The position numbers and the translations under genes are program-made. 64,000 nucleotides of DNA from Nanobdellati archaeon (GTDB taxonomy: Archaea > Nanobdellota > Nanobdellia > UBA10117): positions 6,953 to 70,952 of the forward strand of contig JACOYC010000009.1 in NCBI GenBank assembly GCA_016182015.1. Direction: 5' to 3'. The notes below the pieces were generated by a model, which worked only from the letters and a program-made list of their open reading frames with translations, searched no databases and was not told the origin of the DNA. Positions 1-42,253 of this stretch are shown here, in pieces. Each line of letters starts with the position of its first letter. Position 1 is the stretch's first letter.

Positions 1-689
1 CTAATTTCATAGAAAGTAACTTCCCCTTCCTTGTCCACGATGCCGACCAGCAGTTTCTTCCTCGTGGAATGGGCTACGCGGTTCATCGCTGCGAACTGTG
101 TCCATGTGTAGCCATCTGTCTCGTTTGTGCAGAACAGCACCCACTTCGCGTGGTCCTGGCCTGGCTTCATGCCGCGCGGGTAAACCCTATAATCTGCGCC
201 GAACTTTAAAGCGGTTTTGGTAATGTACCCCCTAGTTCTAATATCCCGGTAAACCTGATACTTTGTCCAGAAGTTTGCCTCAATTTTGTTTGCGAGTTTG
301 ACAAACTGCTCAAAATTAAGCTGCTTCTTGCCGTCCAGCACAACCAATTTCCCGCGCTCCATCAAGTAAAGCGCCTCATCCAGCGCGAACTCAATTCTTG
401 TTTCTTTTACGCCCTGCTGCTGGCCAAAAATCTCGCCGAAGTTCGAGCGGTCGAAGAACTGCTGCGCGTTCTGGAAGTCCTCCCTAACTGCAACCTTGTT
501 TCCAATCAAGTACCCGCGGACTGGCTCCTTGATTTTTATCTGTTCAATCGAAGTCGGTAACTGCTCTGCCGGCTGTTGGTTGCCCCCCATGCCTGCTTCA
601 GCTATCTCGCCGGCCTCTGCAACTTCAGGAGCCCCAAGGCTAGTCTCGTTAACACCTTCTTGTTTCTTATCTTTGTGCTTTTTAGACAT
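1..689 (-). CDS. endA: tRNA-splicing endonuclease (EndA), C-terminus cut by window edge
   Basis: Not in the ORF track because no stop lies in the window. Manual minus-strand translation from the ATG at 689-687 gives MSKKHKDKKQEG...YQVYRDIRTRGYITKTALKFGADYRVYPRGMKPGQDHAKWVLFC...RVAHSTRKKLLVGIVDKEGEVTFYEI. This matches the catalytic domain pattern of archaeal EndA (Y, H, K catalytic contexts). Confidence 0.7.
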   Translation of the reverse strand, partial: MSKKHKDKKQEGVNETSLGAPEVAEAGEIAEAGMGGNQQPAEQLPTSIEQIKIKEPVRGYLIGNKVAVREDFQNAQQFFDRSNFGEIFGQQQGVKETRIEFALDEALYLMERGKLVVLDGKKQLNFEQFVKLANKIEANFWTKYQVYRDIRTRGYITKTALKFGADYRVYPRGMKPGQDHAKWVLFCTNETDGYTWTQFAAMNRVAHSTRKKLLVGIVDKEGEVTFYEI

Positions 690-41977: not shown

Positions 41978-42215
41978 CGCCCCGGCGAAGATATGTTATG
42001 TAGTATATATTTAGTAGAGTATATACTACCATTGAACTCCGGACCCCCTGCTAGCTTCTCGTGGCACCCAAAGTTTGTGCGATCGAAGATCGCACTGGTT
42101 CTTTCTTTAGATGCCCGGGAGCGTTTCTTTCTTCTCAAGAAAGAAAAGCTGCCGTTAGAAGGCAGGTGCTCTATTTACTCCTGCATTTCTGCAGTCCAAG
42201 CTGAGCTACCGGGGC
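41978..42215 (-). tRNA. tRNA-Arg(UCU) interrupted by three putative introns (D-loop, anticodon loop 37/38, T-loop 59/60)
   Basis: The minus strand reads GCCCCGG-TA-GCTC-AGCTTGGAC[~21 nt]AGAGC-A-CCTGC-CTTCTA[~100 nt]A-GCAGG-GGGTC-CGGAG-TTCAAT[~39 nt]-CTTCG-CCGGGGC-G. The acceptor (7 bp), anticodon stem (5 bp) and T stem (5 bp with one G-U) all pair. No CCA is encoded. Exact splice points were not resolved. Confidence 0.65.
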
Positions 42216-42223
42216 ACGATAAG

Positions 42224-42247
42224 TATTTTAAATCGGGTTTTATAAAG
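42224..42247. promoter_or_regulatory. candidate bidirectional promoter (two TATA-like boxes) between tRNA-Arg and leuS
   Basis: tattttaaat at 42224-42233 lies ~25 nt upstream of the leuS ATG at 42254. tttataaag at 42238-42247 (ctttataaa on the minus strand) lies ~28 nt upstream of the tRNA 5' end at 42215. Confidence 0.3.
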
Positions 42248-42253
42248 AATTCT

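Follow-up and report, generated by a model that had tools for sequence, protein, structure and literature searches.

Among the archaea, tRNA genes with several introns and with transposed bulge-helix-bulge (BHB) introns have been described in the Thermoproteales (Sugahara 2007/2008, Fujishima 2010), as covered by two reviews (PMC4090602, PMC4033280). Relaxed BHB motifs in the D and T loops are known from two members of the DPANN superphylum, N. equitans with its (alpha-beta)2 splicing endonuclease (EndA) and ARMAN-2 with an epsilon2 EndA (PMC3488258, PMC5829648). Multi-intron tRNA genes and transposed introns in the Thermoproteales as well as relaxed motifs in N. equitans and ARMAN-2 are already established (PMC4090602, PMC4033280, PMC3488258). 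DPANN genomes with an alpha4-type EndA contain disrupted tRNA genes too, and their incomplete predicted tRNA sets point to disrupted genes that escaped detection; in the current model it is loop insertions in EndA that set the breadth of its substrates (PMC5829648).

Here we analyzed a locus of 238 bases on the minus strand (41978-42215) of a 64-kb stretch of archaeal DNA, the whole of which is called the window in the following. The locus consists of four exons and three introns and very probably serves as the functional, and apparently the sole, gene for tRNA-Arg(UCU) in its host, a small DPANN archaeon that is Woesearchaeota/Pacearchaeota-like; the transcript would be cleaved at the exact bonds predicted below and ligated. 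The first-pass annotation had referred to Thermoproteota and to ARMAN/DPANN lineages as the context of such introns; the DPANN affiliation holds, while the host belongs neither to Thermoproteota nor to ARMAN. With the Thermoproteales the locus and its genome share the number of at most three introns per tRNA gene, located at the canonical site and at D-arm and T-arm sites (PMC4090602, PMC4033280), motifs of the BHB, hBH or HBh' type, the occurrence of similar introns at different positions in different tRNAs, and what appears to be recent, lineage-specific intron gain. They differ in that the present host is a DPANN archaeon with a 0.76-Mb genome, in that a single alpha-type EndA is found here instead of an (alpha-beta)2 enzyme with a Crenarchaea-specific loop, and in that intron 2 is highly structured and 103 nt long compared to a median of 12-25 nt (PMC4090602). 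Membership in the DPANN superphylum and relaxed BHB motifs in D and T loops are shared with N. equitans and ARMAN-2; in contrast to these, there is one EndA gene here, whose product has an N-terminal tail of about 55 aa instead of the Lys-rich loop of N. equitans. A eukaryotic nuclear tRNA gene with three introns is similar in carrying one intron in each of three arms and in BHB-like removal, but depends on a heteromeric Sen endonuclease and is unrelated by descent. Some aspects are less ordinary and are regarded here as leads rather than demonstrations: introns are dense in this clade, the intron 2 family is unusual in size and structure, intron 2 has a junction-type 5' site, the intron 1 module has shifted its site within a single gene lineage, and EndA has neither the N. 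equitans-type loop nor any insertion compared to the M. jannaschii enzyme.

Gene structure and conservation of the spliced tRNA

Removing the three segments listed in Table 1 yields a 75-nt tRNA-Arg(TCT) with an ARAGORN score of 121. The spliced 75-mer forms a cloverleaf with an acceptor stem of 7 bp, a D stem of 4 bp, and anticodon and T stems of 5 bp each, and its 7-nt anticodon loop holds UCU at positions 34-36; CCA is not encoded at the 3' end. All universal nucleotides examined are present (U8, A14, G18 G19, A21, U33, G53, U54 U55 C56, A58 and C61), and their columns are invariant in an alignment of ten orthologues. The tRNA-Arg(UCU) split by three introns that the first-pass annotation had seen on the minus strand is thus borne out, with all four stems and the conserved loops where it had placed them. 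Its D-loop intron of about 21 nt measures exactly that, and for the anticodon-loop intron the site 37/38 stands while the length of about 100 nt is refined to 103 nt. For the T-loop intron the length of about 39 nt was correct, but not the site: a cut at 59/60 would yield the loop UUCAAUU, and the invariant UUCAAAU, found in the mature loop of the nine other orthologues, places the intron at 58/59. In unspliced form no tRNA was detected in the whole window by ARAGORN, with or without its single-intron option, or by Rfam at the gathering threshold, and because neither tool models several introns this null result is uninformative for the locus.

Table 1. Positions of the exons and introns of the tRNA-Arg(UCU) gene, its TATA-like box, and two protein genes of the window
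Feature	Position	Strand	Length	Description
exon 1	42196..42215	-	20 nt	tRNA positions 1-19: acceptor 5' GCCCCGG, U8 A9, D-stem 5' GCUC, D-loop AGCUUGG
intron 1	42175..42195	-	21 nt	ACUGCAGAAAUGCAGGAGUAA; D-loop site 19/20 (cut between G19 and A20)
exon 2	42156..42174	-	19 nt	positions 20-37: AUA, D-stem 3' GAGC, A26, CCUGC, loop CUUCUA (anticodon UCU)
intron 2	42053..42155	-	103 nt	anticodon-loop site 37/38; body of two long hairpin arms
exon 3	42032..42052	-	21 nt	positions 38-58: A38, GCAGG, variable loop GGGUC, T-stem 5' CGGAG, UUCAA
intron 3	41993..42031	-	39 nt	T-loop site 58/59; 10-bp hairpin GUAGUAUAUA/UAUAUACUAC
exon 4	41978..41992	-	15 nt	positions 59-73: AU, T-stem 3' CUUCG, acceptor 3' CCGGGGC, discriminator G
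TATA-like box	42239..42246	-		TTTATAAA; ends about 24-31 nt 5' of tRNA position 1
leuS	42254..45202	+		bacterial-type leucyl-tRNA synthetase; divergent from tRNA-Arg(UCU)
endA	1..689	-		very start of the window, 3' end of the gene beyond it; Pfam N-terminal and catalytic domains

Independent support comes from genomes in which the gene is uninterrupted. When the spliced 75-mer was compared by BLAST to 40 related genomes, it matched over 75 of 75 nt without interruption in G006 (92% identity) and G013 (91%), which belong to the same family as the present genome (G000) but to a different genus. The G006 match (G006:C5:3404-3478) is intronless and scores 67.3 bits with the Rfam tRNA model RF00005. 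Used as query in a spliced aligner, this intact tRNA-Arg(UCU) reproduces introns of 21, 103 and 39 nt at bonds identical to those in Table 1. The same query was aligned to 6060 segments that together span the two strands of the 761-kb assembly: the locus scored 108, followed by tRNA-Arg(UCG) with 76 and tRNA-Arg(CCU) with 70, against a background of 31.6 +/- 6.1. A separate, intact tRNA-Arg(UCU) elsewhere had been named in the first-pass annotation as a possible refutation, and this whole-genome spliced alignment found no second such gene in the assembly, which is 88% complete. A regular-expression scan for further UCU anticodon arms, either contiguous or split at 37/38, had returned hundreds of chance matches when G-U pairs were allowed and was replaced by the spliced alignment. 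The AGA codon makes up 24% of the Arg codons and occurs 10.9 times per 1000 codons in 335 long ORFs, from which we conclude that a UCU tRNA is required.

For better evaluation of the spliced product we aligned ten orthologues, five of them intronless (G006, G013, G012, G040 and G028) and five spliced in silico (G000, G002, G007, G014 and G015), where spliced alignments were used only if their exons were clean. Each is 75 nt long and the D, anticodon and T loops are invariant, where it should be considered that the splice junctions were partly picked to yield a good tRNA, which affects the loop sequences but not the covariation of the stems. All 210 of 210 stem cells of the cloverleaf can pair, and at 11 of the 21 pairs the two partners have both changed in a compensatory manner. 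For the covariation score we obtained 0.545 compared to 0.18 +/- 0.03 for shuffled alignments, a value that none of 500 shuffles reached, and when the partners were slid by 1-3 columns as a control only 31-53% of the cells paired. Selection therefore acts on the spliced product. Comparing the exons with those of the congener G002, we observed that the sole differences are C-G to G-C flips at the acceptor pairs 2:71 and 3:70, the bases of which are contributed by exons 1 and 4 and are separated by about 230 nt in the gene. Judged from these flips, the four pieces clearly work as one RNA.

Upstream of the gene, a TATA-like motif starts at -28 to -31 at about 27 of the 42 tRNA loci of the genome including tRNA-Arg(UCU), and the box is also kept upstream of the G007 orthologue. 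On the other strand, the first-pass annotation had described the locus as antisense to a spurious N-terminal extension of the leuS ORF, which agrees with our results: the ORF 41993-45202 overlaps the tRNA only via an extension of 87 codons. Counting from the ATG at 42254, homology to other LeuRS proteins sets in at residues 13-26, and this ATG is likely the true start of leuS, with 41993-42253 being a spurious extension antisense to the tRNA. For annotation this means moving the leuS start to 42254 and adding the tRNA-Arg(UCU) gene. The best leuS matches are Woesearchaeota/Pacearchaeota MAGs (55-62% identity), followed by many bacterial phyla (50-57%). In the congener G002 leuS lies downstream of tRNA-Arg(UCU) on the same strand, while the two genes form a divergent pair in G000, so that either the tRNA or leuS has been inverted.

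Splice motifs and processing enzymes

According to the BHB rule, there is a central helix of 4 bp, which includes anticodon bases one and two, with a 3-nt bulge on either side, the two bulges being on opposite strands, and cleavage occurs after the second bulge nucleotide, i.e. two nt past the 4-nt helix strand (PMC4090602). The first-pass annotation had left the junctions to be checked for such motifs, and we found BHB or BHB-like motifs at all three introns, strict for intron 1 and relaxed for introns 2 and 3. Intron 1, read by hand from the sequence, is a strict hBHBh'. Its central helix H, GCUU/GAGU, consists of the pairs G15-U, C16-G, U17-A and U17a-G, two of them being G-U pairs, and the outer helix is the D stem extended by A14-U. 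The bulges are G18 G19 A, cut after G19, and A A A20, cut before A20, and the adjoining h' is a 5-bp helix CUGCA/UGCAG closed by a GAAA loop. Intron 2 is canonical at its 3' site, where C32 U33 U34 C35 pairs with GAAG, followed by the bulge C U A38 with the cut before A38 and by the anticodon stem. Its 5' site is relaxed: the bulge, (U36) A37 and an A with the cut after A37, leads into an intron-internal helix A (CGG.AGC.U10 / A10.GCU.CCG) within a multi-helix junction, and there is no helix with the 3' strand at this cut. In the intron body, H, helix A and the second long arm meet in a junction. We aligned 13 copies of the intron 2 family and observed that both partners of the three basal pairs of helix A have changed in 5, 7 and 2 sequences, and on this alignment the conserved helix A can be seen to occupy the usual place of the inner helix h' at the 5' site. 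A strict BHB at this site via the termini GGCA/UGCC was considered and rejected, as it yields a 4x4 internal loop and not a bulge, and it is helix A that covaries instead. We saw no C/D box motifs in intron 2.

In intron 3, H has 3 of 4 bp, G53 U54 U55 being paired with AAC and C56 facing a mismatched U. The 5' bulge A57 A58 U, cut after A58, is followed by a 1x1 mismatch and by a perfect 10-bp hairpin as h', and the 3' bulge is enlarged to about 5 nt. In the G007 orthologue, with a matching T-loop intron of 39 nt, all 4 bp of H can form (GUUC/GAAU) and the 5' bulge is strict, and in the T-loop intron of G002 H consists of a G-U pair, a U-A pair, a U-C mismatch and a C-G pair. For the T-loop intron of G014 no convincing H helix was found at any possible cut register. 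When the fold was forced into all three motifs, its energy was -89.1 kcal/mol compared to -95.2 for the MFE structure, a cost of 6; with only the motifs of introns 1 and 2 as constraints the cost was 1.5 kcal/mol.

Both enzymes expected for splicing at such motifs are encoded in the genome. EndA matches PF01974 (95.7 bits) as well as PF02778, and an RtcB gene is present (PF01139, 567 bits). One endA gene, coding for a single alpha-type subunit, was found in the 88% complete assembly. The protein probably has 234 aa and starts at M47 (MSKKHKDKKQ) of a 280-aa ORF; the full ORF, which would imply an extension of 100 aa, was rejected as relatives point to the M47 start and an extension of about 55 aa. 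This tail lies ahead of the N domain and is Lys-rich, then acidic. The best alignments of EndA are to the alpha subunit of N. equitans (3IEY_A), then to the alpha4 enzyme of M. jannaschii (1A79). In pairwise HMMER alignments, on which these comparisons are based, EndA has no counterpart of the Lys-rich insert, six residues long, in the N. equitans loop (residues 90-98; PMC3488258), and no insertion relative to M. jannaschii was found over residues 124-280. Compared to the broad-specificity classes, (alpha-beta)2 with CSL/L1, epsilon2 with ASL/L2 and DPANN alpha4 with L3, neither an L1, L2 or L3 loop insertion (pairwise HMMER) nor a second structural subunit (assembly 88% complete) was found. 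That such introns need an endonuclease of broad specificity, as the first-pass annotation put it, is something we infer for this EndA and not a property read from its sequence. Many relaxed, non-canonical introns together with a single alpha-type EndA in which the N. equitans-type loop is missing bear on the model in which loop insertions set substrate breadth (PMC5829648). The Lys-rich/acidic tail is about 55-65 aa long in G000, G002, G007, G009 and G008, i.e. where EndA was recovered among seven genomes with 3-6 detectable tRNAs. Tails of about 27-45 aa were read from the ORFs of G004, G005, G010, G018, G021 and G027, and in the intron-poor G006, G012 and G013 the tail is apparently near-absent as judged from match ranges and ORF lengths only. 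This trend is possibly a clade effect.

From these elements a processing route can be proposed. The gene would be transcribed from its own TATA-box promoter into a precursor of about 240-250 nt, which EndA would cut six times, each time after the second nucleotide of the bulge flanking a 4-bp exon-intron helix. RtcB would then ligate the four exons to the 75-nt tRNA, and CCA would be added post-transcriptionally.

Three other explanations have to be weighed against this reading. If the locus were a pseudogene in decay, which three inserted repeat elements have disrupted and from which no tRNA is made any more, it would be expected that ARAGORN and Rfam miss it, and intron 2 is indeed a member of a dispersed repeat family, for which nhmmer gave at least 15 matches in G000. 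However, decay is hard to reconcile with exons that are intact at 75 of 75 positions and with stem pairs that are all kept, including compensatory changes relative to the congener. Moreover, the assembly yielded no further UCU gene despite the AGA usage, each of the insertions sits in a splice-competent motif, the promoter is retained, and nearly all tRNA genes of G000 and of six related genomes are built in a similar way. A pseudogene is for these reasons highly improbable. That the inserts are instead chimeric joins in a metagenome-assembled genome is a thought suggested by the 31-contig, MAG-like assembly, but independent assemblies hold the homologous T-loop intron at 58/59 (G007, G002) and an orthologue with three introns (G014), and the intron ends are tailored to the flanking exons; the chance of an assembly or binning artefact is negligible.

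The remaining alternative accepts a functional tRNA but assumes that the inserts are removed outside the BHB endonuclease pathway or at other bonds, either by another joining route or with the D- or T-loop insert being retained as an expansion. The 5' site of intron 2 and the 3' site of intron 3, which are not strict BHBs, would fit such a view, and so would an EndA without the N. equitans loop tied to relaxed specificity and without insertion relative to M. jannaschii (PMC5829648, PMC3488258). On the other hand, an exon-intron helix lies exactly two nt upstream of both cuts in 3 of 3 introns, for which the rough chance is 0.02 x 0.02 x 0.15, and the G007 T-loop intron has the perfect 4-bp H and strict 5' bulge described above. 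The introns are also too small for self-splicing introns and are without their features. Every tRNA needs the contacts between D loop and T loop, and an insert kept at G19 or A58 would block them. We regard removal outside the BHB pathway as very unlikely, and a functional gene spliced at BHB and BHB-like motifs remains the reading that we follow.

Intron density and intron movement

The present genome comprises 761 kb in 31 contigs with a GC content of 44.8%. Rfam detects 5 tRNAs above threshold in it, compared to 42 in G006, 30 in G013 and 42 in G040. Intact tRNAs are similarly scarce in G001, G002, G007, G008, G009 and G014 (3-6 matches each), whereas other family members have 16-36. Taken at face value, the 4-5 tRNAs reported by standard tools would suggest a wildly incomplete translation system. 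The locus analyzed here explains this scarcity: the tRNA genes are present but interrupted by one to three introns, and they can be recovered when intact relatives serve as queries for spliced alignment. Using the 42 tRNAs of G006 as spliced-alignment queries on G000 we obtained about 42 loci, 37 of which are valid tRNAs for ARAGORN only after intron removal. Among the recovered genes only Trp(CCA) and Arg(UCG) are intron-free, and about five carry three introns (Arg UCU, one Met, two Leu CAA and Phe), where the intron counts per gene are approximate as the aligner sometimes splits a single intron. Judged from these alignments, tRNA-Arg(UCU) with its three introns is unexceptional within its genome, in which spliced tRNA genes are the rule.

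A further hidden gene in the window, missed by ARAGORN and Rfam as well, is tRNA-His(GUG) at 46905-47232 on the minus strand, which begins with GGCCGCCGUGGUCUAGUGG including the extra G-1. Two introns interrupt it: one at or close to 37/38, about 110 nt long, which within the intron 2 family belongs to the 'GUACAGCCCC' branch, and one in the T loop, about 150 nt long, which contains nested hairpin cassettes. In tRNA-Arg(CCU) of G000 (locus L033, G000:C3:27006-27145, plus strand) a 39-nt D-loop intron occupies the exact bond of intron 1, between GCUCAGCUUGG and AUAGAGC. D-loop introns at this bond are also found in the CCU genes of G001, G007 and G011, and the intron end GGAGCAA of the G011 gene resembles the end GGAGUAA of intron 1. 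The UCU and CCU isoacceptors have an identical D arm.

Comparing the tRNA-Arg(UCU) orthologues, we observed no introns in G006, G013, G012, G040 and G028. In G007 there are two, at 15/16 (103 nt, a member of the intron 2 family) and at 58/59 (39 nt), and G002, which belongs to the genus of G000, also has two, at 30/31 (23 nt) and 58/59 (44 nt). G015 carries introns at 30/31 (22 nt) and 53/54 (30 nt), and G014 has three, in the D loop (164 nt, intron 2 family), the anticodon loop (40 nt) and the T loop (45 nt), compared to 19/20, 37/38 and 58/59 in G000. This series from none over two at differing sites to three introns constitutes a natural experiment on gain, loss and movement of archaeal tRNA introns. 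Since the loop UACUAAAUA of intron 3 is common to the introns of G002 and G007 at 58/59, intron 3 is probably the oldest of the three. Intron 2 appears to have arrived after the split of G000 and G002, as the tRNA-Arg(UCU) of this congener has no intron at 37/38.

Intron 1 can be aligned over ACUGC-AGAAAUGCAGGAGUAA with the 30/31 introns of G015 (ACAGCUAGAAAUGCUGGGUGAA) and G002, a homology that rests on 21-23 nt. The introns differ by one compensatory U-A/A-U swap in the hairpin and by a different 4-nt segment before the terminal AA: in intron 1 this segment is GAGU, which pairs with exon GCUU, while in G002 and G015 it is GGUG, which pairs with exon CACC. A search of 39 genomes of the order with the pattern AGAAATN{0,2}GCWGGNNNAA revealed no such module beyond the three tRNA-Arg(UCU) genes; there were 34 matches, all others being located in coding sequence.

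The nhmmer matches of the intron 2 family in G000 are located in other tRNA genes, where they occupy D, anticodon and T loops. In BLAST searches multiple copies of the family were found in G000, G001, G002, G007, G009 and G014, and none in G006, G013 and most other genomes. The closest copies of intron 2 lie outside G000: tRNA-Ser(UGA) of G002 contains one with 94% identity over 85 nt, and tRNA-Ser(GGA) of G014 one with 95%. Relative to the G002 copy the first 60 nt or so are identical, and the last 20 nt or so vary with the host gene. The tRNA-Ser(GGA) gene of G014 (locus L178, G014:C72:6800-7400) holds two copies of the family, at about 20/21 and at 37/38, of which the second is the one with 95% identity to intron 2.

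We tentatively consider that the three introns could be recent arrivals of actively mobile, splice-competent RNA modules, each composed of a conserved body and a short, exchangeable 3' adaptor that pairs with the exon, although we regard this as doubtful. Such modules would be retargeted at the RNA level through reverse splicing by EndA and RtcB and then be copied back into DNA, and the enzyme involved would be the alpha-type EndA described above, without the N. equitans-type loop and without insertion relative to that of M. jannaschii.

As a minor observation, the second arm in the intron 2 family contains a single-stranded purine tract (AAAGAAAGAA in intron 2) that mirrors the purine strand found in helix A, so that it cannot serve as an alternative Watson-Crick partner. 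In the family copy at 46923-47003 (minus strand) the tract AAAAGAG compared to the helix strand GAGAAAA is likewise a mirror and not a direct repeat, and the tract of intron 2 is itself mirror-symmetric.
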